This document shows, piece after piece, positions 4,920 through 64,000 of a DNA stretch of 64,000 nt (position 1 is its first letter; every line of letters starts with the position of its first letter). This DNA is from Naegleria gruberi. Lineage: Eukaryota. A program made the position numbers and the translations under genes. The stretch lies in NCBI GenBank assembly GCA_000004985.1, contig GG738872.1; one strand, given 5' to 3'. The notes under the pieces were generated by a model. The model was given only the letters and a program-made list of their open reading frames with translations. It did not search any database and was not told the DNA's origin.

Positions 4920-6077
4920 TTACAATGAAAAGTGATAGAATTCTCTTCTGAATTTTAAATCACCATAATCACAATAGAATCTACAGGGTGATTTCAATTC
5001 AAATTTGTAATAACCAGTATCTATTATACCTCCATAGTAAGAGTGATCGTAATAGAAATAATCGAACGTTGTTGTGTGCTCTGCAATCATTTCAAAAGTG
5101 CTAGTTGTTTTTTTAGTGTCCACAATATCTGGACTAAAGGTGGATGATTCGATTACTCGAAGTTTTTCTCTTTTGGTGTAGATTCCAGCTAATGTATCTG
5201 TCATGCAAACAAAGAAACATCCAATTAAGACTCTGTACACTCCAATTTCTTTACAATCGTGGAAAGTACTAGGATTTCCCTTATTGTAAATTCTACCTTT
5301 CAGTTTTTTAGGTGTAAAATGTCTGTAAATTTGGTCAATTGTGAGGAGATTGTAAGAATGTTTGAGGTTTGTTAAATCCAACATGAAACATGAATTGCTG
5401 CCATCAATTTTCCCCATCAGTAGGTAACTAGTCAAGTTTGTGGTTTTACAAGAATCAAACGTTTTGAGCTTGATATAAACTTGCTTTTTTTCTGGATCAA
5501 CATCAAGAACATCGACCAATCTTGAAAGTATTTCATTCTCTAACATAACCTTCGAACTGGATAAATTCAAATATTTGACAATTTCTGTGATGGAATTGAA
5601 TTTCAAATCAAATTCAATACGTATCATGTTAGCATTCTTTCTATCTGTCTTTACAATCTTTTTGAAAATATCCCCCCTCGTACTCTTATTTGCCTTGTTG
5701 AAACTCTGTTTTTCAATTCTATTTAAATGATCAAAATCACATTTGAATCGAATAATTATCTTGGATTGTTTAGTATAAATGTTATTATCATTATAAATTG
5801 TTGAATATAAACTGCCATTATAGAGCTCATTCTCTAGCCTAAAGTCTTCATTTGTTCCTTCGATAATTGGTTCATAATTTTGTTTATCCATAAAGCATTC
5901 TTTTAGTTGATGTTCAAAATCCTGTTTTCGTCCACAAAAATTGACTTTTGTCTTGACAATTATTCCAAAACTTTTCAAAATTTCCAAAAGAGAAGATGAA
6001 TCAACAACTGACAATGCCTCTCTATGTTTCTTATCTTTAGGTATTTTTATTGGATGGTTGAATTGACTTGAAGACAT
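4920..6077 (-). CDS. Hypothetical protein (385 aa), no recognisable domain by eye.
   Basis: Long intact ORF with window-typical codon usage. It is transcribed divergently from the 6153 gene with only ~75 bp between start codons. Confidence 0.5.
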   Translation of the reverse strand: MSSSQFNHPIKIPKDKKHREALSVVDSSSLLEILKSFGIIVKTKVNFCGRKQDFEHQLKECFMDKQNYEPIIEGTNEDFRLENELYNGSLYSTIYNDNNIYTKQSKIIIRFKCDFDHLNRIEKQSFNKANKSTRGDIFKKIVKTDRKNANMIRIEFDLKFNSITEIVKYLNLSSSKVMLENEILSRLVDVLDVDPEKKQVYIKLKTFDSCKTTNLTSYLLMGKIDGSNSCFMLDLTNLKHSYNLLTIDQIYRHFTPKKLKGRIYNKGNPSTFHDCKEIGVYRVLIGCFFVCMTDTLAGIYTKREKLRVIESSTFSPDIVDTKKTTSTFEMIAEHTTTFDYFYYDHSYYGGIIDTGYYKFELKSPCRFYCDYGDLKFRREFYHFSL

Positions 6078-6152
6078 TTTTTTGTTTAGAGAGTATGAAC
6101 TTCAATTCCACAAGTTCACTTCTTAATAAACATATAAAAATAACTTTAAAAA

Positions 6153-7493
6153 ATGCAAACACAATCTTGTCCGGTAACAGGTGATTCTGATTCTACAATA
6201 TTACCACTTGTAGCCATGATCGGAAGCAAAATGTCTTCTTTTCAATCGTTCTTCATGCTCAAGGCCAGAATGTTGTATCATTGTAAAGGGTTGGATAAAA
6301 GGTATTTTGAAAAATGTCAAAAGATTGCCTATGAATCGAGAGGACATTTCAGAATTACTGCCTTTGATATAATGTGGAATGAGAGTGGATACAGGGATAA
6401 GACATTTGATTTAAGATATGACAAAATGAATGATGAATTTAAAATGGGAATATTATATGAAAATAATAGAAAATTAAAGAGTTTGATGAAGATTTCATTA
6501 ATGGCTGATGGACATATTGTGGCCATTGATTTGGAGGAGTATCAATATTCAACTAACTCCAAAAAATACATTGAAACAATGAGAGAGCATTTTCTTATTG
6601 CAAAAATGAGTGGAAAACATTGTATGATAATTGTAAATATTTCAGAATTTGATAGAACATTTGAAAAACTTAATGATTTGATGGAAGAAATTCAGAAAAT
6701 TTTGAAGGAATTTTCCATGTCAAATATTCACATTGTTGGTATTCAAGGTAATTCCAATTTCTCCAAATTGGATCCATTTGAAAGGATGCCTCATCCATTG
6801 TTTTCCAAATTAACTTGTACCGAAGCAATAATTGAATTCAGAAAGGAAATTGTGAAAGAAATTGAAAATACTCAGATTACCCAAAATAATGAAGGAGACA
6901 GTTTAGTGTATGCAGTTATGGGAAAGGAGAAAATAGGAGGGATTGGAACTACAGTGATTGGAAGAGTAATTTCTGGTTCTATTCAATTTGATCAAGAGGT
7001 AAAAATTACAGAAACAATTCTCTCAAATGTGAAAAGCTTAGAAATATTTCACGAGAATCAAACCAAAGTGAATAGAGGAGATTTTTGTGGGGTGGCATTG
7101 AAAAATGTTAGAATGGTTGACATTACAAGAGGTAGTTTGATTGGAATAGATCCAAGTCATACATTTGAGGCCATAGTTTACATAACACACTCACCAAAGA
7201 AAGGATGGAAAGTTGGAGTGACACCCATAGTATTTTCAACTTGTGTGGGGGAGGCCTGTAGAGTTATTGAAATAGTGGAAAGGTTGAACAAAAAGACAAA
7301 GACCCCTCTTGTTTCCAAACCAAGCAATTGTAAAGAAAACGAATTAGTTAGATTGAGATTTAGTTGTCATAAGGGCATTCAACTATTCAGTGAGGAACGA
7401 TGGAGAAGAATCATTTTAATTCACAATAACAAAGTCATGGGAGGTGGTTTTATTACCTTGGTTGGTGGTACTCATTACAATGAGAATAAATAA
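6153..7493 (+). CDS. EF1A/eRF3/HBS1-family translational-GTPase paralog with a degenerate G domain (putative pseudo-GTPase).
   Basis: The C-terminal two-thirds align to EF1A beta-barrel domains II and III: VYAVMGKEKIGGIGTTVIGRVISG, VKSLEIFHENQTKVNRGDFCGVALKNV, FEAIVYITHSPKKGWKVGVTPIVFSTCVGEACRVIEI and VMGGGFITLV. In the N-terminal region the P-loop GHVDSGKS is replaced by IGSKMSSFQ and NKxD by NISEFD. The ORF is intact at 446 aa. Confidence 0.6.
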   Translation: MQTQSCPVTGDSDSTILPLVAMIGSKMSSFQSFFMLKARMLYHCKGLDKRYFEKCQKIAYESRGHFRITAFDIMWNESGYRDKTFDLRYDKMNDEFKMGILYENNRKLKSLMKISLMADGHIVAIDLEEYQYSTNSKKYIETMREHFLIAKMSGKHCMIIVNISEFDRTFEKLNDLMEEIQKILKEFSMSNIHIVGIQGNSNFSKLDPFERMPHPLFSKLTCTEAIIEFRKEIVKEIENTQITQNNEGDSLVYAVMGKEKIGGIGTTVIGRVISGSIQFDQEVKITETILSNVKSLEIFHENQTKVNRGDFCGVALKNVRMVDITRGSLIGIDPSHTFEAIVYITHSPKKGWKVGVTPIVFSTCVGEACRVIEIVERLNKKTKTPLVSKPSNCKENELVRLRFSCHKGIQLFSEERWRRIILIHNNKVMGGGFITLVGGTHYNENK

Positions 7494-7669: not shown

Positions 7670-8793
7670 ATGACAAAAGGATCCATCAGATTGGCATTAG
7701 ATAAACCATATTATATTGCCGGAGAGGTAATTACTGGTAATTGTGAGGTGAATATTTCTCAACCTGTACAAGCTGCTGCCCTCACTATTAAATGGAAAGG
7801 AATGGAAAGAACCAAGTTTGTTATTTCTAGAATGGAGACTTATGATGCTGGTGGTGGTAGAACAGAAACTAGAACAGTCCATGATAAGTTTGAACAAGAA
7901 AAGACCTTCTTCAAGACTCAAATGGTTTTAGGTTAGTTTTTATTAATGATCAAAAATTGTTAATGAGCAAAATATTAATATGTGTGATGATGATTTAATT
8001 ATATTTGCAATGAATTAATTATTTAAAATTAATAGGAAGTTTTAATGGAGGAATGGCAATGCCAGGTACTTATTCATTCCCTTTCCAATTCCAATTACCA
8101 GCTGATTTGCCAGGTGGATGCAACATTCATCGTACTGAATTCGGAAATGAATATAGAGCAGCTATTATTTACAAAGTTAAATCCAATTTGGATAATGTTA
8201 ATGAAAAGGATATTAAGGATAAGAGATACTTGTCAATTGTTCCTAGATCTTTGACTGTTCCTCAACCAGTTAGTTGTCACAATGAAAAGAGTTTCCTCTT
8301 TGGTGGTTCAGGAAAGCTTTTCATGGATGCTACCATTCCAAAGAATGTTTTCATTCCAGGTGAAACAGTTCCTGTCCGAGTTATTATTGACAATCAATCA
8401 AAGAAGAATGTTGACAAATTGAAAGTTAAACTTATGCGTGATGTTAAACTCAATTGTAAGGGAAGAACAATTCAATATTCAGAAGAAGTCAATCGTAATG
8501 TTTTCAATGGAGTTGACAAGAAATCAAAACATGATAATGTATTGAATTATGGTTTACCAGCAAACATTTTCCCAAGTACTGAAGGTTCAATGATTTCCCA
8601 TATTTATCACTTGGATATTGAATGTGATGTTGCGTAAGTTTTATATTAATTTTCATCATGTTATTAATTCAATATTACACTTAGAATGGCATTCGATTTG
8701 GAAGTTCACCCACGTATTGAAATTATCTTCATGCCAGCCATGAATCAAGCTTTCTATTTCTATGATAATATGCCAAAAGGGTGTTGGAAGTAA
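7670..8793 (+). CDS. Arrestin-domain-containing protein (arrestin_N + arrestin_C). Three exons, 7670..7931, 8036..8633 and 8685..8793.
   Basis: ORF 7670..7936 (arrestin-N-like) and ORF 8053..8637 (arrestin-C-like) are linked by a 104-nt intron (gttagt...aatag, 7932..8035; phase 1). A 51-nt intron (gtaagt...cacttag, 8634..8684; phase 2) adds a short terminal exon ending at TAA 8791-8793. Confidence 0.7.
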
Positions 8794-19358: not shown

Positions 19359-22300
19359 TTACAATTGGCAAGTATATTTGTAAACTACACCATCCTCACC
19401 ACCACAGTATAATTTTTTACCATCACTAGTTAAATAAAGACAGGTAACAGCAGATTTGAGATCTTTGAGAGTAACAGACTTGGTCAAAGTGAGCTCGTTC
19501 TTGTTTGTTTCACTTGAAACAGTGTAATTCATATCAAATATACTAATTTCACCATTTGAATGACCAACAAGCAAGTGTTCTCTACCGTCATAAGGATTGA
19601 TAACTTTAAGAGCTGTTGTAGCTGGTGTTCTTCCTAAACTCTTTGAAGCCAAGATGTCACCATTCATAGCATAAACAGTTACTCTGGTCCATTGACAAAC
19701 AATAATTTGTCCAGTGGATGGACATACAGAAATAAATGAAATTGGTTTGTCTTCAACATCTGATGGAATTGACAATTCACGAACATACTTCAATCTACTT
19801 AGATCCCATACAATACATGTTGCATCATAACTTCCACTAACAATGATGTTGAATTCAGAGCTAGCTGTAACGTAAGAGATTTTATCAGTGTGACCACACA
19901 ATCTCTTTTGAATTTCCAAAATTTCAGTCTTCTTATGTTTCTTAATCTTGAAAACACTGACAACACTATCTTCACCACCACAAACAAGCACTTGATGATC
20001 TTTAGTGATAGTAGCATGACTAATTTGAGAGGTATGAAGTCTTTCATGAACTACTATTGGTGTTTCACTGTTACTGTCTCTGAATAATCTTAATGAGTAA
20101 TCAGGATGTCCATAAGAATAGTACTTTGAACTCTTAGCATCTGCAAAGAAGCAATTCTTGTTCACAGCAACAATACCATTAACTAATTGTTTTTGAGTTA
20201 AAGAAATTTGACCAACAGCTAATGGACCCCATAATTGAGGAGTAACAGGTTCAAAAGTGTTGACACCAGAGAAAGGTGTTGTAACTACAACACCTGTGTC
20301 TGAGACAGTACTACTTTCCTTGTATGTGAGTACCTTGTTGATCTTACCTGTTAATTTTCCAAGGGTTGCAGTAAATGAAGGAGCAACAATACCTCCTTGT
20401 AAATCGGCAACAATTGTACTTCCTGCGTCATTGGCATATGTTACATCATCTGCAACAATACCCTTGAGCTTGTTGAAAGAAACACAAATAACATTTGGAT
20501 CAAGAACCTTCTTAAAACTTGGTAATACGACTGGTTGTGTGTTAACAGCAAGTACAAGATTACTAATAAGTCCTGAGCTACCAACAAGTGCACCAACATT
20601 GCCATCGGATGCTTCACCACCTGTAGTTTGTGTACCAACAGTTGGTAATTGATCAGCAGCAGTAATATTTTCAGGAGTTGGACTAATAGTAGGTTGCTTT
20701 TCAATTAATTGATTGGTATTTCTCTTTGGATGTGGTTTTGTGAACAATTGTTGTGGAGTATTACCAAAGTTACTGATTTGAGAAATGATAGCTCTCTTTT
20801 CGATTTCATTCGAAATATTATCAATATCAACAGATCCTTCATATGTTAAATAGAAGAAAACATTCAATGCTTTTTCTGCTTCTGGACCTTTTTGCTTGAA
20901 ACCAAATATTAAATCTACCCATTCATGCAAATGTTCAGAAACATAATCACTTTCCAATGCTTTTCTCATCATCTTTACAAAATATTCAGGATTACCGTGA
21001 GCCCAAGGTGGTAACTCTACTTCATTGACTGGATTACCATTTTGCTTCAAGCCAAACTGTACGTTATTCTTGTTGATCAAAAATTCAGGAAGAACGTAGA
21101 ATTCAGGAATCAATTCCTTAACATCTGATAAAGAGAAATCAGTTGATGCAGATTCCCAAGTTTCCTTGATTGAGTGGAACATACGATCAGCAATATCAAA
21201 CTTGCCTCCTTGTAATTCAACACATTGAGATGTATAAGGTTCAATTCTCAACATGTAGTAAAGTACAATACCTGCACTTGAATAGTGAGAACCATAGTGG
21301 AATTTTGGAATATAAGGATCACACCAACTGTGATATCTTTCACGGAAAAGTTTAGCTCTACCATCATCAATAGCACCCATTGGTTTAGATAAATCACGAT
21401 AAATCTTTGGATCATTAAAGTTCAATTCTTCACTACTATAATCTTGTAAGACCCATGGGAAGATTGGATATTGTGTTAAATCGTTAAAAGATCTTCCAGC
21501 TAAAGTGTTCAAGTACATTAAATATTCAAAGTTATCAACTTCTCCCTTTTGCCACTTTGATTGCATAGTCTTGAGTGAAGGGAAGGCCTTCTTGTGATGT
21601 TTGTCTGAAGATTTGAGTTTTTCATACACTTTGTTCATGTCAACCTTCTCAAGTACTAAGAAGAAGTTTCTACCATCACTACAGAATATTTCAACTGCAG
21701 TTTCTCTCAATAAATATCTTCTCTTGAGAATGTCATTAATATCAGTTAGTGGAATCTTGATTGTTTCATGAGAAATATCAGAAAGTTCATTTTCACTGAC
21801 TGCCTGTTGTGCGCTTGATTCAATCAATGTGGAGTGGTCTCCCTTAACTTCTATTAATTTATCATCATCAGTAAGTACATAGTTGTCGATAATGTAGGCA
21901 TTATTCTTACAAATCAAGAATAGAGACTTTTGTCCATCGAGACCATTAATTCTCAAACTGTTATAACTGAACAAAATCATATCACCAGGTTCGATAAGTT
22001 TTCTAATCTTGAAATCTTCACCCATTTCTTCTTCATACATTGTAAGTAAATCGTCATCATCAACTTCATCAGCAGTAGCATTTTCCAGAGTTGTTCCTTC
22101 ATGAGTATTATCACTTTCCATACTTTCATCCAATGATTCCAAATCACCTCTAGATCTGTTAATTTCAAGTGGTCTTGGACTTCCTTCAAGAGAAATATCT
22201 GTTGTATCAAGAGTAATGGATGGAGGAGCAAGTGCTTCAAGATCCTTGTCATCAAGTTCCTTCTTTGGTTGTAACATTTCACGAGGCTTTGCAGGTGACA

Positions 22301-25300
22301 AATAGCTCCATTCTTGGAACTTTTCAAGGTTTTCAATGGCTGGTTTTTCAGGTTGCTTAGGAGAAGAGTCCATGTCAATTAAATTGACAGTGGACTTTAC
22401 AGTAGTATTTCTTTCCTTCTTAGATGCGTGGACACTATTTTGTTCTCTGTTTGGATCGGATTGAATAGCAACTTCATAAGCCTTTTCAAGATGGAATTTT
22501 TCTAACTTGATTCTCATTCTCTTAGGACCTTCAGTTGAATCCAATCTCCATGCCAATGTATTGTCTTCTTTAGCTCTATGAGACCATGTTCCTCTTTCCA
22601 TGAACAATAATTCGTAAAGATTGTTCCATGTCTCTCCAGCAAATTTTAATCTAATAATTGATTCTTCAACCAAAACTTGGGTTCTTTCTTCTTCCATTTC
22701 AATAATGTGTTTTAATTGGGATTTGGCATTTCCAAGCAAGAAACCATAATTTTCTCCTAATTTTCTTTCACTTCTTGAGGCAGATCTGTTTCTCATTAAA
22801 TCTCCTTCTAACATGTTCAATGCATTATGAGTATGCTTATTTTCACCTTCAATATATCCAGTGAGAGTGGATGCCAAGTTATTATTAAAGAAATTGGAGA
22901 CTTTTTCGTTATTTTCATTAAACCACTTTGTGAAAATAGATACATCAGAATCTAACAAAGATCTGAATCCTTGAACAATACTATTACCCAAGTCATAGGC
23001 AGCTTGAAGAGTTTCATTTGTAATTTTCTCTTTTGGAACCAAGAAAATTGTTGGAAGTAAATTTGTATCGTGATGGGCAGCAACAATCAACTTCCAGATT
23101 TTAACTGCTGTATCCTTAATTGAAACTTCGGAATCATCTGTCATTAGTGTAAACAAAAGGAAGAAAATACAATTAAAATATTCAAAATCAAGATTGTTAG
23201 GATCTAGTGAAGTTATAAAAGCTTGAGTATCCAACATTGAATTGAGAACTTTCTCTGTAAAATCGCTAGATGATACTTGAACAAATGAATATAAAATCAT
23301 TCTGTTAAGGGATCTAAATGGATATGCTGAAGATTCCTTCTTCATACCAACTCCAGTTGTAAAAAGATTTGTTACGGAAAACTTGGATGATACGTCCAAC
23401 TGTTTGGTTGTTGAAATTACTTGGATTATGAAATTCAAAGTATCAATGTAGTGAGTTTTTGGTAAAATAGAAGCATAGTGCATATCAACTACATAAGAAC
23501 AGAAAACTGAAAGGTTTGCTCCAAGTTTGCTATCTTTTGCTTGAACCCAAGCAACCATCTTCTCGCTGGAATAAACCTTGATTAATGACATTAAGAATGA
23601 AGATCTAAATGCCAAGGTTGAAGTTTCACTAGCTTGAGTTGGAGGAGATTTCAATATATCTTCAACAATTTGAACACCTTTGCTTGAGTTGGAGAGTTCA
23701 TAGGTTGTGATAGCTCTCAGAATGGAAAGAACTGATGAAGCAATAGAATTAGTTAAGAAGGCATCTGTATCTACCTTTGGTTTTTTGTTCAACTCTAGAG
23801 AAAATAGCATAATTGATAATGCTTGAAGCGTTTCAGGCTTTCTAAATTGAGTTTTAACATCACTAGATAATCTCCATATTCTCTTGAATACAGATAATAT
23901 TTCTTTAGTAATAGCATTTTCTCTTGGTCTTTCTTCCAATTTAATTGAGTTCAAATCTATTGTAGTAACTGGGCTTGCTTCTTCTTGTTCAATACCTGCT
24001 TTAAAAGATCCAACAGAAGAAACAACGTTTCTCAATAAACTCCATCTACGGTTGGCTTGTGATGATTTTTCTTCTGATCTAAAAGATGCAAAATAAGAAA
24101 CAGCTGAAACCTCACCATATAATGCACTCTCAGAATCAGGAGCATAGTTATGAGAAATGAGTTCGATGAGTATTGGAATAACTTCCTTGCAGAAAATAAT
24201 ATCTGTCATACCCTTTTCATTAAACATTCCTGAAACTTGATCCAAAGAATTCTTCAAATCAGCCTCTGAGACAACGTTCAATGAAGGATAAGCGAAAATT
24301 GTTCTAGTCATCAACAATAATAAGGTGTAATAAACATCTGGTTGATTACAATATGGTATTAAACCTCGTTTTAAACTTGGTAAAATATTATCTGGCTTTA
24401 TCTTTCCTTGTAAAAGAAGAAGACAAAGTAATTGGAGAGATAATATCAATGAAATAGGATGAGATTTCTCTCCAACAAATTGATAGAACCAAACTTCATC
24501 AACATGTTTTGAAAATAATTCAAGGTAATTAACATCTGAACTAGCTAAATCGTATAACATTTTCAATAATAAATTTCTTGCTGCTACATTACTCAATGAA
24601 AGGGTAGTAGCACTTTGACGTCTTAACTTCTTGGAACTTGATGAGGAAACATCAGACAGAGAAGGTGTTTGAGTAAGTGAGAAGGAAGAGTTGTTTGACT
24701 TGGTGTTAACCATAACCCAACTTCCTGCCTTTTGTATCTTTCTATTTCCTGATATGAGAGCAGAATCATCAAGAGAACTCAGCAAAAAGTTACAAATAGA
24801 TATCATATCATTATCTGACATTCTATGCTTGAATAAGTGAGCTAATATACCAGAAATAACTTCAATAATTTGAATGGATGGAGATTCACTCAAAATATGC
24901 AACAATTTGGTAACAATGCCTGTTGTCTTGAGTCTAATAACATTCCAATGAGTATAATAACTTTGCGAAACAAGATTGTCAATTTTTTGGAATAATTCAA
25001 GTTGAATAGCTGTATCTGTCTTTCTCCAAATATCATAATCAATGATCAAGCAAATAAATGCTTTCAGATTGGTTACAATTTCCTTTTGTTCACCACTACC
25101 CATAAGTACAAAATCGAATAAAAGTTGAAGAATCTTGCTATCCAACAAAGATGTCTTTTTTCTAATGAAACTTGCAATAATGTCGTATCCCAAAATTCTT
25201 TCTACTTCATCAATTTGTAATGGAGAGTCCATCATCAAATTGTACAAGAGCATTAATGAATCATAAAGAGCTTGAGTAGTTTCAGCTCTATCAATGAGGG

Positions 25301-28300
25301 CAAGAACAACTACAATACCATCAGAGTTAAGAATATTGTCAGAGAGTGATGTTGGGCAACAAACAAAACTCTTGTCTAATTGTGGTAAGAGTACTTTTGG
25401 TGACTTTCTATCGCCGTGTAAACTTTCTAAAACCAGTGAATTGTTTCTGTTATCTTGGTCCAATGACTTTAGGGAATGGTTATGAGCGTTGAATGCGAAT
25501 ACCAATCTCTCAGGAGATAATTTAGAGGCAGAAATTGATACAATGCTTTCTTTTGCTTCGGTTTCAGTTGAAATCTCTCTAGATGTTGCAACTCTTTGCA
25601 ATAATTTAATATAGTTTGGATAGAGATGATATGTAAGAAGATCCATGTGTGGAGTATAGGATCCTTGGAAATAACCTGTGTAAGTATTGTTAGCAACGAA
25701 AATAGATGCAACCGTCTCTGGATAAAGAACATCTTCATAAAGGAAAGAAGGTCCCATTCTCCAAACATCAATACTATCAGCACTATTTTTACCCAAAATA
25801 CCAGTAACTTTGGATCCTGCAGCATACGGATTAACAAAACCAACTTTTTGTGATTCTTCCAATTTACCATCAACATAAATCGACATTACACTGCTCGATA
25901 ATCTGTTTCTTTGATGGGTTACAACCAAGTGATGCCACTTGTCAGATTCAAATTGAACCTTAGAGAATAAAATTCTCTTTGATTTTGGTCCATTTTGGAA
26001 TTCAAGAAAACCATCTGGTCTGACGTGGAATTGAAGGAATGATTTGCCATCATCTGATTGAATGTTAAGAAGAATAAAAACATTGAGATCACCAAAGGTT
26101 GTTGCTGATAATCTCTTGCTTGCGTTGGATTGTGTTCTTTGATGAGAGTGAGTTCTTCTTTTCTTTTGGGCTGTAGCAGAGACATCTGTTGTATTGTAGA
26201 ACCAACATGAGAAAGTATATCCAGCTGTCATTGAACTATTCCAAGTTCTGTCTGTTAGATTAATAATTGGGCATTCAGATCCCGGCCTATATTCTACAAA
26301 TGGAGTGCTAATACCTTTCTTGGCAGCATTCATCAATAATTTCATCATACATTGTGGGTGATCCTTGTCTGCAAAGATTGATAATAATCTTCTCCACTCC
26401 AATTGTGATAATCTGTAACATGCAACTTTTTCGCAAATGTTTAGTAATGTAGCACTAAACTTGTGATTAGTGTCAACCATTTGTCCATATAAATTATCCA
26501 AAATAAAATCAACAACCTTGATATTGGATAAACCCTCTAGGTTCAATGGACCAACTTTTAACATTAACTCGGTAACTTTCAAAATGGACAATTGTAAATC
26601 CTCACTAGCATGATTGATGAGTTTTAAACAAAACAAAAGACCAAATGGATTATGAAGAATTGGGCATTTTGAAACTGTGAGACCGCCAATATTCAGATAG
26701 AGGTCGTTATCTCGTGATCTAAGGGGAATAGGTGTAACTGGGCTAACAGCCAGAGAAGAAATATTGCCAGAGGAAATGCTATTATAGCTTAAATTACCAG
26801 AAGAGTTATTTTGATCAAACTCTTCAATACATTTCTCAGTTGCAAAATCAATCAAACATTGGAAAACTTCTTTCTTGTACTCAGTGTTCATTATGCCATT
26901 TACATTTAAAGCGTCAATTATGGCATTATCACCAATCTTAGGTAAGAATGATAACTTATTCCTTGGATGATTCTGAAGAGATGTAGCCAAAGCAGTAAAC
27001 ATGGATTGCATTAATCTGATTACGTCCATTTGTTCGTAAAGCTCCTCAGTGTCAGTATTATCATTCTCAGAGTTTGAATCCTCTAAAAGCTTATTCAATT
27101 GCTTTGAAAGAACTGAACCTGTTGGGCATGGAGTATTAATCAAGATAGAAACACTAGCAACAAAACCGGCGTCTCTAAATGACTCTTTTGCTCTATCATT
27201 ACTCTTAAACATTTTAGTAAGAGCATTGAAAATAGCAATCTTGAGTCCAATATTAGATCTCTTTGATGTTTGTAAAATTTCAATCAATACATTGACATCG
27301 ATACTTTGTTGGACTGTATCTTGAACAATAATAGTGTGGAACACTTTCAAAGCATACCCTCTAAACATGTCATTAAGTAACATTGTTTGAAGGACTGACA
27401 CACCTCCAACTTCTCTGAATGTACGTACATTATCGTTTGTCTTTTGAAGCATGGAAATTAAAACTTGAATAGTTAAATCTAAGAGTTTCAAAATAACCAT
27501 ATTCTTTTCATCATTGTTTTTGAATTGCCCCAACTTGATAATGCTTTCGAATTCATCACAAAGCATACCAACAATTTTTTCAAACAAGTAGGCTTCCTTG
27601 AACCTAATACTAAATCTGGAATCAAAGTTTAACAGTTTGTTAATAAGAGAGAGAACGTTCAAAACTAATTTAGGAGCTGCTTCTCTACTGGTTAATAACT
27701 CTCCAAGCATCTTCAACTCTTCGATTGGTGAAAAATTCAAACCTGCAAATATGAATTCAACTAGTTTTAAAACTGATTGTTGCATTTTCTCTGAGAGGTC
27801 AGGTAAATTTCTTATCAAAATAGCCATATTATGTAAGTGATGTACTGATGGATAATTTAGAGAATTATCTGCAAAGACTACAAGAAGTATTTCTATAATT
27901 TCTTGTTTTAAAATATCCTTGTTTGTTTTCAAGAATATATTAATTAATGATTGATAAATTGCAATATTCTTAATTCTTCTTTCCAAACTAGTATTTGCTG
28001 AGGAGAAGTTCATTTGTTGAATATAATCTTGTGGAGGCTCTGTTGGTTTTTCTCCAACACAAAGAAGATCGCTAAAGTTTTTAAGTGCTACTTTCATAAC
28101 TTCCATATCAGTTTCAAATTGAGTTTCACATTCTATGAGGGCCTCTTGAAGTATTTGATGGCCATTTGAATCATTAAAATCTCTGTACAGGTAAGGACTT
28201 GTTGAAATAGTTTGTTTTAAAATTGAAACAATAGTTTCTATTACTGATGAAACCATTTTGTAATCTGTTGATTTGATATTCTTGAAAGAATCTAATAATA

Positions 28301-29359
28301 AATAAATAATTTTCTTTTTGTGTAAACTGTCAACCAATACAAGATCAGTCTTGATTAGAAGAGCTGAAAGTATATCAAGAGCTAACTTTTGAGAGAAACT
28401 AAACCCTTCTTCACATTGGAAGTTAGTGAGAATTCTTACCAAAGTGAGAACATCCTCGCTCTTTTTTACAGTTTCAGTCAACTCTCTATTGTTTAAACAG
28501 ATGTGTATGAAAGATACTAATTGTTGACAAACAACTTCAATAGATTCTCTTGTTGTCAATTCATGTTTTTTTTGTAAAGGTTGATCATCAACTGTGATAA
28601 GTAGAGAACTGGTTTTATCTGAAGGATCAAAATCTTGTACGTATTGTTGACAGTAAAGTTCAATATCCTTTGATGTCATCTTTGAAACTATATCTAATAT
28701 ATTTATAATCAATGTGATAATTTTAAAATCCATAATAAATGGAGCTGAAACTTCCTCGAAATTAGAAACCAACATGTTCAAAGTATTTACAATATCAGAG
28801 CAATGTTTTTCCTTTGAAATTAAATAATGTATAATAGATAATTTAACACTGTTGAGATTATTTGGTAGTGATGATGAGCTTGGATCGAAACTAGTATCAA
28901 TTTGAGTGGTGTTGAAAGGTGAAGGTGGAGGGACATTACTAGTTTCTTTCAAAGCGTTTTCCATATCCTTTTTCATTCTATGTGTCACTGTTGATGTAAA
29001 AGTTTGTGTGTTTTTGAATCTATCATTAAAAATTTAGAACATTGAATATTTGTAAATTTCACTTACATTTGATGAAAATGTTGTTGAAACATTGTTTGAC
29101 TATAAAATACTTCTTGAAATAGGGTTATAATATTATAAAGTGAAGTATCCGTCTCGGAATATAGATTAGACTCGTTTAAAAACACCTCCCATTTTGTCTT
29201 CAAATCAATAAATGTTTGAAAGATCTCTTCACTATTAAAATCCTCTCTAGATATTGGTTTAGCTTCTACTCTTGGTGTATTGTTAGATGTACTTTCCGTG
29301 CCTTTCATTCCAAATACACTTCCAATATACCCAAGCACTGATTTTCGTTTGTTGGTCAT
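19359..29359 (-). CDS. BEACH-domain protein of the LvsA/neurobeachin/LRBA family (~3300 aa; ConA-like, PH-like, BEACH and C-terminal WD40). Two exons, 29067..29359 and 19359..29019.
   Basis: It has the BEACH signature ([29 protein letters not shown]...WVDLIFGFKQKGPEA) and WD40 repeats at the C-terminus. The upstream ORF 29063..29359 (ATG at 29357-29359) splices through a 47-nt intron (minus-strand GTAAGT...TGATAG, plus 29020..29066; phase 2). This lands in the frame of the 9.6-kb ORF, whose track start at 28988 is a GTG and therefore internal. Confidence 0.85.
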
Positions 29360-61713: not shown

Positions 61714-63144
61714 ATGCTCAACAACAAGAATGAATCCTCTTGTTCAACATCACAATCATCATCATCAAAATATGAATATTCAATACATCCATCATTATAT
61801 TTATTAAAAAACAAAATATCATATAATAATCATTTCTCACCTTCTATTTTATTATTTAATCATTCCGATCATTATTCCGATCATCAATTAAATCAATTAT
61901 CTATTCATAATAATATTATTAATATTAATAATAATACTAATCAATCCAATCAATCAGAATCTACTAATCAATTATCTATTCATAACAATAATAATAATCA
62001 ATTTAATAATCAATCTATTCACAATAATAATAATAATAATCAATTTAATAATAATAATAAATTAAATAAATATTATAAATTAAAAAATTATACCAATCAT
62101 TATGGAGGTATAATTAAAATAAATGAAGAATCTAATTTACTATGTATAGGTACAAGTGAAAGTAATTCTTTAATTATTTGTAAAATTCAAAATGATAATC
62201 AAAATGATCAAGAATTAAATTTTGAATTAAAATCTAAATTTTTAGAATATCATACAAGTGAAATTTTAGATTTTGAATTTTATAATCAATTTATATTTTC
62301 ATCTTCATTAGATTCAAATATATCTTTATATGATTTAAATATTTCTAAAAAAGTAAATAATATAAATTTAGAAAATCAAATAATTAATAATATAAAAATA
62401 GATAAAAATATTCCATTATTATATTTTTGTAGAGAAAAATCAATTTCAAGTTGGGATTTTAGATGTAAAAATTATAATACAATAATTTCATCAAATTCTA
62501 AAAATAATATTTTAAATTCTAATAATAGATTAGATTTATATAGAAATATAAAATTAAAAAATGATAATAATACAATTATATTAACTAGAAGTAATGGTAT
62601 TATTGAATTTAGAGATTTAAGATTTAATAAAAATGTTCATTATTTATTTGATAAATTTGAACATTTTATAAATATAAATCCAAATACAGAAAATTTAATT
62701 TCTATAAATGGAAATGGAAATATTTATGAAATTAAAGAAAATTATAATTCAAATAATATTAATGATTCTATTTATAATAATTATTATCATTTTAATTTAA
62801 TTGGAAATAATCAATTTTTTAATAGAAATATTGAATATTCTAAATATGGTAATTATATTATATGTGGTAATGATTTAGGAATGACATTTATATTTGAATG
62901 TTTTAAATATTCTAAAAATAAATTAATTGAACCATTAACAATTATAGAAAGAAATGAAAAATTACCAATTAAAAATACTTATTTTATAAATAATTCTAAA
63001 TTTGGTGAATATGATCATTTTATTACTAGTTTTAATGATACTATACATTTATATAAATATAATAATAATTTAAATAATATAAATGAAAATATAAATAATA
63101 ATTTAAATATAAAAAATAAATATCTAAATAATTTAATGATTTAA
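61714..63144 (+). CDS. N-rich protein with degenerate WD40-like beta-propeller repeats (476 aa).
   Basis: Repeat-like strands are SSLDSNISLYDL, SISSWDFR, IIEFRDLRF and TSFNDTIHLYKY. The N-terminal 120 aa are poly-N/Q. Function is unknown. Confidence 0.45.
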   Translation: MLNNKNESSCSTSQSSSSKYEYSIHPSLYLLKNKISYNNHFSPSILLFNHSDHYSDHQLNQLSIHNNIININNNTNQSNQSESTNQLSIHNNNNNQFNNQSIHNNNNNNQFNNNNKLNKYYKLKNYTNHYGGIIKINEESNLLCIGTSESNSLIICKIQNDNQNDQELNFELKSKFLEYHTSEILDFEFYNQFIFSSSLDSNISLYDLNISKKVNNINLENQIINNIKIDKNIPLLYFCREKSISSWDFRCKNYNTIISSNSKNNILNSNNRLDLYRNIKLKNDNNTIILTRSNGIIEFRDLRFNKNVHYLFDKFEHFININPNTENLISINGNGNIYEIKENYNSNNINDSIYNNYYHFNLIGNNQFFNRNIEYSKYGNYIICGNDLGMTFIFECFKYSKNKLIEPLTIIERNEKLPIKNTYFINNSKFGEYDHFITSFNDTIHLYKYNNNLNNINENINNNLNIKNKYLNNLMI

Positions 63145-64000
63145 TTGATTTGGCAGAATTTGTTGAAAATCATGAAATACAAGAATGGCAATTAAATACA
63201 GTTTCAAATGATAAATGTTCATATATGGATGGATATCAAGATCAAATTATTTATATTTGTTTAACTTGTTTAGAAAATATTAATTCAAATATTTATAATA
63301 ATAATTTAAATAATTTAAATAATAATAATAATAATATAATTATAAATAATATAAATGAAAATAAAATATATACAAATATAAATGGAAATGAATTAATATT
63401 ACATGGTATATGTGAATATTGTTCTAAACATTGTCATCATGGACATTCTATATATAATATTGGATTAAAAAGGAAATTTAAATGTGATTGTGGTAATTTT
63501 AAATTTAAAAATAATGATATAAATGGTAATAGTAATATATTAATAGATTGTGTAGGATGTAATATAATTAAATCTAATTTAAATGAAAGAAATGAATATA
63601 ATCATAATTATTGTAATGAATGGTGTTATTGTAATCAATCTGAAACAGGTAATATGTATCAATGTGATCATTGTTATGATTGGTTTCATGATCATTGTAT
63701 TTTTAATAATTTAAATACTACTATAAATGGAAATGATAATAATATAGGTGATTTGGCAAATAGATTGGGATTTTCATTTATATGTGAAAAATGTTGGAAT
63801 GATAATATTAAAGATATAAATTATACAATTGAAATTGATCAACAAGATTATTTTAATAATAATAATCAATTTAATATTATAATACAAAATATTTATAAAA
63901 ATAATGATGATAACATGATATTGACATCTTCATCATCTCTTAATAATAATATTGATAAACAAATAGTTCAATTAGATGAAGATGATGAAGATGATGATGA
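63132..64000 (+). CDS. UBR7: UBR7-like putative E3 ligase (UBR-box zinc finger + PHD finger), 3' partial at window end.
   Basis: It is absent from the ORF track because it runs off the window. Frame 0 is open from 63132 to 64000. KCSYMDGYQDQIIYICLTC...GICEYCSKHCHHGHSIY...RKFKCDCGNFKFKN matches the UBR7 UBR box (CSYSQGS...ALYACSTC...GICLACSYECHGSH...RNFRCDCGNSKFKN). It is followed by a PHD C4HC3 (CNEWCYCNQSETGNMYQCDHCYDWFHDHC). The first in-frame ATG is at ~63222. Confidence 0.7.

Follow-up and report, generated by a model that had tools for sequence, protein, structure and literature searches.

What does a cell keep when it keeps an elongation factor whose motifs for binding guanosine triphosphate (GTP) have been eroded? 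The question is raised by a gene in a 64,000-nucleotide stretch of nuclear DNA from the amoeboflagellate Naegleria gruberi (contig GG738872.1 of assembly GCA_000004985.1; the whole stretch is referred to below as the window). An open reading frame (ORF) on its plus strand, at 6153-7493, encodes a product that is 100% identical to the N. gruberi "predicted protein" NAEGRDRAFT_49665 (XP_002676402, D2VHV7). A preliminary description, made from the letters alone, had taken this gene for an EF1A-family paralog with an eroded GTP-binding domain (G domain), had labeled the product a candidate pseudo-GTPase, and had likened it to Ski7 and to the partner of Dom34, Hbs1. Our analysis upholds the first two points and leads away from the third. 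NAEGRDRAFT_49665 is very probably a GTPase-dead derivative of eEF1A that has been maintained by selection. We further propose, much more tentatively, that it works as a nucleotide-independent mimic of its ancestor, and the explanation as a whole, in which these two parts are blended, comes out just on the favorable side.

The resemblance to eEF1A runs along the length of the protein. Two Pfam families match above their gathering cut-offs, GTP_EFTU_D2 (PF03144) at amino acids (aa) 265-330 with E = 8e-10 and GTP-eEF1A_C (PF22594) at aa 338-435 with E = 1e-6, and the G-domain family PF00009 (cut-off 26.5 bits) gives no match even at E <= 1. When the full-length protein was compared with the PDB sequences using phmmer, eEF1A2 was the top match (E = 5e-19, colinear over aa 38-398), and no chain of Hbs1, Ski7 or eRF3 occurs among the 60 matches listed. 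With aa 1-248 alone, eEF1A1 still came first at E = 7e-4 (aa 38-214 against 22-207) and eRF3 reached E ~0.1 (0.12), while domains II and III alone matched archaeal and eukaryotic EF1A at about 1e-12. The NCBIfam model EF-1_alpha (TIGR00483) also recognizes the protein (E = 1e-22), with 80.3 bits against a family cut-off of 540 bits, and its identity to eEF1A is about 25%, which corresponds to an amino acid divergence of about 75%. An exhaustive phmmer search of 1.84 billion representatives returned 160 matches at E <= 1e-3, the only one at E <= 1e-30 being the gene itself. Every match examined was an eEF1A-type protein or a fragment of one, including a long eEF1A-like protein with an N-terminal extension, and neither Hbs1 nor eRF3 was recognized among them.

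Structure prediction, which the preliminary description had named as a check, points in the same direction. An AlphaFold2 model built with a 47-sequence alignment has a mean predicted local distance difference test score (pLDDT) of 79.9 and a predicted template modeling score (pTM) of 0.81. It shows the EF-Tu layout of a G domain followed by a beta-barrel domain II and a domain III, with pLDDT of about 90 across domains II and III and a G-domain-like core of alternating strands and helices at pLDDT 70-92 over aa 100-200. In a Foldseek search of the PDB, the top places went to eEF1A on the ribosome and to archaeal EF1A with bound GTP (E ~1e-30, the best being 2.6e-30; template modeling (TM) scores 0.72-0.79), followed by EF1A in the form bound to guanosine diphosphate (TM ~0.41), with Hbs1 and eRF3 at 1e-24 to 1e-23 and 16-18% identity. 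From this affinity the gene is best read as a derivative of eEF1A proper and not of Hbs1, eRF3 or Ski7.

What has been lost is the nucleotide-binding apparatus, as had been noticed for the P-loop, DxPGH and NKxD and as the HMMER and MAFFT alignments show. In the P-loop (G1), GHVDSGKS has become G24-SKMSS-F30, a shortened loop without GK[ST]. The model has a strand at aa 19-24 and then a helix at aa 30-43, so the P-loop position is aa 24-30. In G3, DAPGH has become Y102-E-(gap)-N-N105, with Asp, Gly and the catalytic His each substituted. The NKMD of G4 is now S164-E-F-D167, in which the Asp stays and the guanine-reading Asn and Lys are gone, and the SGW of G5 is Q198-G-N. The switch-I Thr (T84) is preserved. 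To express the loss as a proportion, we took 56 canonical eEF1As, selected the positions with a conservation of 95% or more, and counted the share that the protein keeps: 9% in G3 and switch II, 23% in G1, 23% in the G core, and 35% in the switch-I helices, where the G domain is least eroded. One MAFFT alignment set VTGDSDST (aa 8-15) against the P-loop context VIGHVDSGKST. This likeness is probably coincidental; according to AlphaFold2 and HMMER, it is aa 19-30 that hold the first strand (beta1) and the position of the P-loop. Given the loss of the P-loop, of DxPGH with its catalytic His and of NKxD, the protein almost certainly neither hydrolyzes nor binds GTP in the canonical manner. A predicted three-domain EF-Tu fold in which G1, G3 and G4 are absent is what the label of candidate pseudo-GTPase describes, and we retain it.

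The ORF contains each of the peptides quoted in the preliminary description, where domains II and III had been described as clearly retained. For the folds this stands, since both are predicted and both have their Pfam match, but domain III is much more diverged than that wording implied. Domain II is the most conserved part of the protein (KIGGIGT..GRV..G, KS.E..HE and GD..G...KNV are recognizable) and keeps 40% of the canonical positions defined above, whereas domain III has kept its fold with a strongly diverged sequence, at 24%. Domain III is also unusually basic, with a net charge of +9, where a fungal reference eEF1A has +4 and the values for four canonical eEF1As range from +4 to +6; the whole protein has an isoelectric point (pI) of 8.9.

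The residues that handle transfer RNA (tRNA) have fared unevenly. In EF-Tu, the aminoacyl pocket consists of H67, E226, D227, F229, T239 and N285, A76 stacks on E271, and K90 and R300 hold the 5' phosphate of the tRNA (PMC4329189). In a motif-anchored alignment the counterparts of the six pocket residues are Y89, M256, G257, E259, I269 and F311, where eEF1A has L, Q, D, Y, V and N, so that four of six positions differ from eEF1A and five of six from EF-Tu. Seen as motifs, the QDVY and N of eEF1A have become MGKE and F, and EMHH has become EIFH; the altered pocket columns in domain II are M256, G257, E259, F299 and F311. Kept are E297 (for E271), K109 (for K90) and R326 (for R300). The best reading of this pattern is that the protein cannot carry aminoacyl-tRNA.

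These features suggest how the protein might act. It would be a static mimic of eEF1A, independent of nucleotide, in which the domain II barrel, the unusually basic domain III and the kept counterparts of the 5'-phosphate clamp would allow it to occupy a site that is normally eEF1A's, whether on a tRNA-like RNA, at the factor-binding site of the ribosome or on a partner protein of eEF1A. It would not deliver aminoacyl-tRNA, because four of six pocket positions differ from those of eEF1A, and its part would be that of a competitor, placeholder or adaptor, not of an enzyme. This specific mechanism of binding is possible at best, and ribosome binding in particular is speculation. Together with the ligand and the cellular role, the absence of nucleotide binding belongs to what we infer, while the data themselves show what the gene is, which motifs it has lost, its predicted fold, the selection on it and the family around it.

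Nearly as plausible as a mimic, and likewise short of probable, is a protein that has retained only an auxiliary role of eEF1A, such as binding actin or the cytoskeleton or acting in proteostasis, which would require neither ribosome nor tRNA. There is a precedent: Kamikawa et al. (2013) describe divergent, weakly expressed EF-1alpha genes that stand beside EFL and argue that these have kept only auxiliary roles, interaction with the cytoskeleton and ubiquitin-dependent degradation among them (PMC3699394). The loss of the aminoacyl pocket and of all G motifs fits such a role, as does the strong divergence of domain III. So does the GC content at third codon positions, which at 0.29 is like that of ordinary neighboring genes and gives no sign of a highly expressed translation factor. 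However, the kept K109, R326 and E297 and the extra-basic domain III fit RNA binding at least equally well. Moreover, the copies of Kamikawa et al. are the sole EF-1alpha beside EFL, whereas N. gruberi is reported, in a passing remark by Atkinson (2015), to have "several versions of eEF1A ... highly divergent in sequence" (PMC4342817). The mimic remains the preferred mechanism.

Either function presupposes a gene that is under selection, and on this point a second copy is informative. A metagenome contig of 2953 bp carries the gene beside the same divergent neighbor, from a second strain or allele, and differs from the ORF in the window by 20 substitutions and no indels over 1341 nt, while indels are present in the short flanks and even in the neighboring coding sequence (the spacer between the two genes has 3 substitutions and 5 gap columns). 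Eleven of the changes are non-synonymous and nine synonymous, which by Nei-Gojobori counting gives a ratio of non-synonymous to synonymous polymorphism (pN/pS) of 0.30, with non-synonymous changes rarer than the neutral expectation (binomial p = 0.009). In aa 335-437, the extent of the domain III fold, all three changes are synonymous. None of the ten amino acid differences falls at the degenerate positions of G1, G3 or G4, and because the same degenerate motifs occur on this independent contig, their loss cannot be a sequencing artifact; the possibility of an error-laden copy, raised in the preliminary description, is thereby ruled out. The ORF, which had been called intact and gene-like, has no internal stop, compared with 18-48 in the remaining five frames and a mean of 39 (minimum 21) in 2000 shuffled sequences. 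By these measures it is a protein-coding gene under purifying selection, because a pN/pS of 0.30 is joined by a frame that has remained free of stops through about 75% amino acid divergence in a genome of 32% GC.

The same data bear on the view that the gene is an eEF1A duplicate in decay, without function and with an ORF that is still open by chance, which we consider quite unlikely. In its favor one can cite the identity of about 25% to eEF1A, the loss of all catalytic motifs, a pN/pS that derives from only 20 substitutions, and the fact that neither an ortholog of more than 30% identity in the databases searched nor evidence of expression was found. These points are outweighed by the open frame where every shuffled sequence has at least 21 stops, by the lack of indels in a coding sequence whose surroundings have them, by the deficit of non-synonymous changes, by domain II and III cores predicted at pLDDT of about 90, and by the existence of similarly degenerate relatives that are intact ORFs elsewhere. 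A selected, GTPase-dead eEF1A derivative accounts better for all of this.

The relatives also suggest how the present state may have been reached. Divergent EF1A-like proteins among the top matches of our searches, which comprised a word-index search of 5.8 billion clusters in addition to the exhaustive search, include two further N. gruberi paralogs, NAEGRDRAFT_71823 (P0064, 337 aa) and NAEGRDRAFT_71873 (P0226, 393 aa). These are 74% identical, lie on the same 337-kb contig, and are probably the product of a recent duplication. Their gene models seem truncated at the 5' end; a 456-aa protein from an ENA contig (P0230) represents a fuller ORF of 71873, the added N-terminus of which includes an intact P-loop, GAEKSGKT. 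The remaining members are C9374_011189 of N. lovaniensis (P0150) and the environmental proteins P0063, P0067 and P0069/P0211, with P0063 and P0211 coming from the same ENA sample. DxPGH is gone from 71873 in its fuller form, which keeps GAEKSGKT and TKCD, from the N. lovaniensis protein, which keeps GSARVGKS and NKCD, and from P0069, which has GPSLSGKG and TKID. In NAEGRDRAFT_49665 and P0063, G1, G3 and G4 are all lost. The branch with G1 and G4 but without G3 looks able to bind GTP and unable to hydrolyze it, and the series as a whole looks like a staged erosion, with hydrolysis given up first, which led to a state like that of Ski7, and nucleotide binding later.

In neighbor-joining trees NAEGRDRAFT_49665 is joined either by P0063 at 78% bootstrap or by both P0063 and P0067 at 65%, and 71823/71873 group with the N. 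lovaniensis protein (78%). The wider group receives 92% with four members and 42% with seven, because other long branches intrude. Together these proteins form a small, fast-evolving and loose EF1A-like group of Naegleria and related uncultured eukaryotes, to which NAEGRDRAFT_49665 belongs. No further members were found in scans of metagenome contigs, and a profile search with the family alignment, uninformative in that it failed to list two of its own input sequences, returned only canonical eEF1A. A one-residue insertion was considered as a character specific to the family and dropped when a scan of all matches showed it in other divergent EF1A-like sequences. An origin from a giant virus was rejected, since the only eEF1A genes that a scan of viral contigs (IMG/VR) brought up, those of giant viruses, have canonical features and fall in with canonical eEF1A in the clustering.

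The environmental members have some context of their own. P0211 and P0063 are encoded on contigs L001 (ENA ERZ27315067, 17 kb) and L006 (same sample, 2 kb), whose source is an uncultured eukaryote with an intron-poor and very gene-dense genome (spacers of 13-130 bp, GC ~38%), and its two divergent EF1A-like members mirror the multiple paralogs of Naegleria. Beyond the gene itself, no synteny was found between these contigs and the window. Partial erosion of G motifs is also seen in many other environmental and protist EF1A-like proteins, among them P0115 (DTPSP and SKME), P0196, P0181 and P0073, as well as in two from Pelomyxa schiedti, one of them 1827 aa long. Divergent or degenerate eEF1A paralogs seem widespread in amoeboid protists.

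Two explanations fare worse than those weighed so far. NAEGRDRAFT_49665 could be a surveillance factor in the manner of Ski7 or Hbs1, that is, a GTPase-dead partner of a Pelota- or eRF1-like protein that acts on stalled ribosomes and recruits the decay machinery. This was the analogy drawn in the preliminary description, and Hbs1 and eRF3 do appear among the Foldseek matches, but we regard it as very unlikely in view of the sequence affinity to eEF1A, an architecture without an N-terminal adaptor, and the loss of G1, G4 and G5, in which it departs from Ski7. Highly improbable is a non-canonical pocket that still binds a nucleotide or small ligand and makes the protein an unusual switch or enzyme. 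In its favor, T84 and one residue of G4, D167, remain, conservation within the G domain is highest in the switch-I helices, and a sister branch has an intact P-loop and [NT]KxD, so that binding may have been lost only recently. Against it, the P-loop is shortened and no longer has the two residues, Lys and Ser/Thr, by which beta-phosphate and Mg2+ are held. Substitutions have also removed Asp and Gly from G3, Asn and Lys from G4 and Ser from G5, and no Pfam G domain is matched.

Several points weigh against the selected, GTPase-dead mimic that we prefer. A pN/pS of 0.30 amounts to moderate constraint only, and the conservation on which we rely comes from one intraspecific comparison with 20 substitutions. 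Conservation in related species, another check that had been named, was not found: among about 15 billion proteins there is no ortholog of more than 30% identity, the word-index and the exhaustive search both recovering only the gene itself above that level, and for the branch of NAEGRDRAFT_49665 none was detected in N. fowleri or N. lovaniensis. The literature yielded no expression or biochemical evidence for the gene; its locus tags and accessions are named in no paper found, and XP_002676402 is not among the entries covered from an N. gruberi proteome supplement (PMC9035749). With respect to the fold, the alignment behind the AlphaFold2 model is dominated by canonical GTPases, and its closed arrangement, which may simply be inherited from them, is no evidence of a constitutive conformation. 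The family tree is a neighbor-joining tree on very long branches, with a poor value for the seven-member group, and long-branch attraction is possible; the changes N285 to F and LDCH to LY, first considered as synapomorphies, were dropped when they also turned up in other divergent EF1A-like sequences. Finally, domain III keeps so few of the canonical conserved positions that the contacts of canonical eEF1A with the tRNA T-stem or with partners may be gone too.

The extent of the gene itself calls for a correction. The table lists its parts together with the start of the RefSeq model. In light of the predicted structure, translation more plausibly begins at the ATG further upstream (6153), because initiation at Met22 would cut strand beta1 (aa 19-24). 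An independent metagenome gene call likewise gives the longer protein of 446 aa, and the single between-strain change 5' of Met22 (window 6153-6218) is synonymous. The RefSeq-annotated start is therefore probably too far downstream. Further upstream, the spacer to the divergent neighbor is so short that there is no space for an additional exon or an N-terminal extension.

Table. Features of the eEF1A-derived gene and its upstream flank, in window coordinates.
Feature	Position	Strand	Remarks
Spacer to divergent neighbor	6078..6152	.	75 bp; neighbor ATG at 6077, minus strand
ORF of the eEF1A-derived pseudo-GTPase	6153..7493	+	Complete single exon, 446 codons plus stop
Degenerate G-domain remnant, aa 19-240	6207..6872	+	Still colinear with the eEF1A G domain
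Met22 ATG	6216..6218	+	Start of the 425-aa RefSeq model, which aligns to aa 22-446
G1 (P-loop) relic, G24-S-K-M-S-S-F30	6222..6242	+	Between predicted beta1 (19-24) and helix 30-43
Switch-I-like helical region, aa 38-86	6264..6410	+	Keeps G.DKR..EK..K.A and Thr84
G3/switch II relic, I100-L-Y-E-N-N-R-K107	6450..6473	+	Replaces (I/V)IDAPGHRD; HMMER alignment
G4 relic, V161-N-I-S-E-F-D167	6633..6653	+	HMMER alignment
Domain II beta-barrel, aa 251-334	6903..7154	+	PF03144; pLDDT about 90 or above
Domain III, aa 335-437	7155..7463	+	PF22594; pLDDT about 90

The gene lies among ordinary eukaryotic genes, which include an OSCA/CSC1-like channel, an arrestin-domain gene, an actin-related protein, a DCN1-like protein and a giant BEACH-domain protein. 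The divergent neighbor (4920-6077, minus strand, 385 aa) is without a Pfam match and shows a 9-nt in-frame indel relative to the second strain or allele; the 75 bp that separate it from the EF1A-like gene are a putative bidirectional promoter region. Downstream, a gene with arrestin N- and C-domains (7670-8637, plus strand) seems to fall into two ORFs, 7670-7936 and 8053-8637, with an intron of about 100 nt as the presumed cause. The BEACH-domain protein, of the neurobeachin/LYST-like type with WD40 repeats, is encoded by an ORF of 3209 codons at 19359-28988 on the minus strand. The 3' end of the window (62001-64000) is very AT-rich, with 15% GC and a GC skew of +0.29, and contains several AT-rich tandem repeats at 61974-62065 and 63051-63389; the segment 38001-40000 is likewise GC-poor (22%).

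If the interpretation is carried further, Naegleria and related uncultured amoebae would possess an unrecognized family of eEF1A-derived pseudo-GTPases that stand at different stages of erosion, hydrolysis (G3) going before nucleotide binding (G1, G4). As nucleotide-independent mimics of eEF1A, its members would bind to tRNA or to the factor site of the ribosome and could tune or silence translation. We think this extended version rather unlikely. Even so, NAEGRDRAFT_49665 and its sister paralogs form a natural series leading from a molecular switch to a static binding module, from which it may be learned which surfaces of eEF1A matter when GTP is taken out of the picture. The practical value is limited, as the case concerns one lineage, has no close ortholog, and has its function deduced from sequence.

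Few pseudo-enzymes are derived from translational GTPases. Ski7 and Tsr1 are the most familiar, and every one of them has brought to light a ribosome-linked mechanism of its own. We know of no described derivative of eEF1A proper that lacks G1, G3 and G4 and is accompanied by sister paralogs in intermediate states, and the literature search was negative as well. Canonical eEF1A and its archaeal counterpart EF1A remain the closest comparison, as the best match in both sequence and Foldseek searches. They share with NAEGRDRAFT_49665 the domain order, a similar length (about 460 aa against 446), colinearity over aa 38-437 and a basic pI. The difference from canonical eEF1A lies in the lost G1, G3 (with the catalytic His), G4 and G5, and as its sequence reads the protein cannot be the GTPase that delivers aminoacyl-tRNA.

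Ski7, a GTPase-like cofactor of the exosome derived from Hbs1 (PMC4509514, PMC4933942), offers an instructive contrast. The Saccharomyces cerevisiae protein keeps G1, G4 and G5 and binds GTP (PMC4509514), with only the catalytic His replaced, whereas in NAEGRDRAFT_49665 G1, G4 and G5 are degenerate. Ski7, Hbs1 and eRF3 all have long N-terminal adaptor regions, that of Ski7 binding the exosome and the Ski complex (PMC4509514), and no such adaptor is present here, where only about 18 residues precede beta1. The state typical of Ski7, with G1 and G4 kept and G3 lost, is approached by the sister paralogs 71823/71873 and by the N. lovaniensis protein 011189, not by NAEGRDRAFT_49665. Comparable too are the divergent EF-1alpha proteins treated by Kamikawa et al. 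and Atkinson, which are likewise fast-evolving, presumed to be freed from elongation, and kept for some functions. The passages of those papers considered here speak of divergence, together with low expression, and make no mention of a complete loss of the nucleotide motifs such as we find (PMC3699394, PMC4342817).

The best functional precedent for a nucleotide-free mimic of a translational GTPase is Tsr1, a biogenesis factor of the pre-40S particle that has been described as an "inactive structural mimic of translational GTPases" (PMC4895721). Tsr1 is a static, ribosome-binding placeholder. If the extended version of our proposal were true, pseudo-GTPase mimics of this kind could act, for example, during the transitions between amoeba, flagellate and cyst, and the Naegleria family would stand beside placeholder factors of the Tsr1 type as a eukaryotic counterpart that descends from eEF1A.

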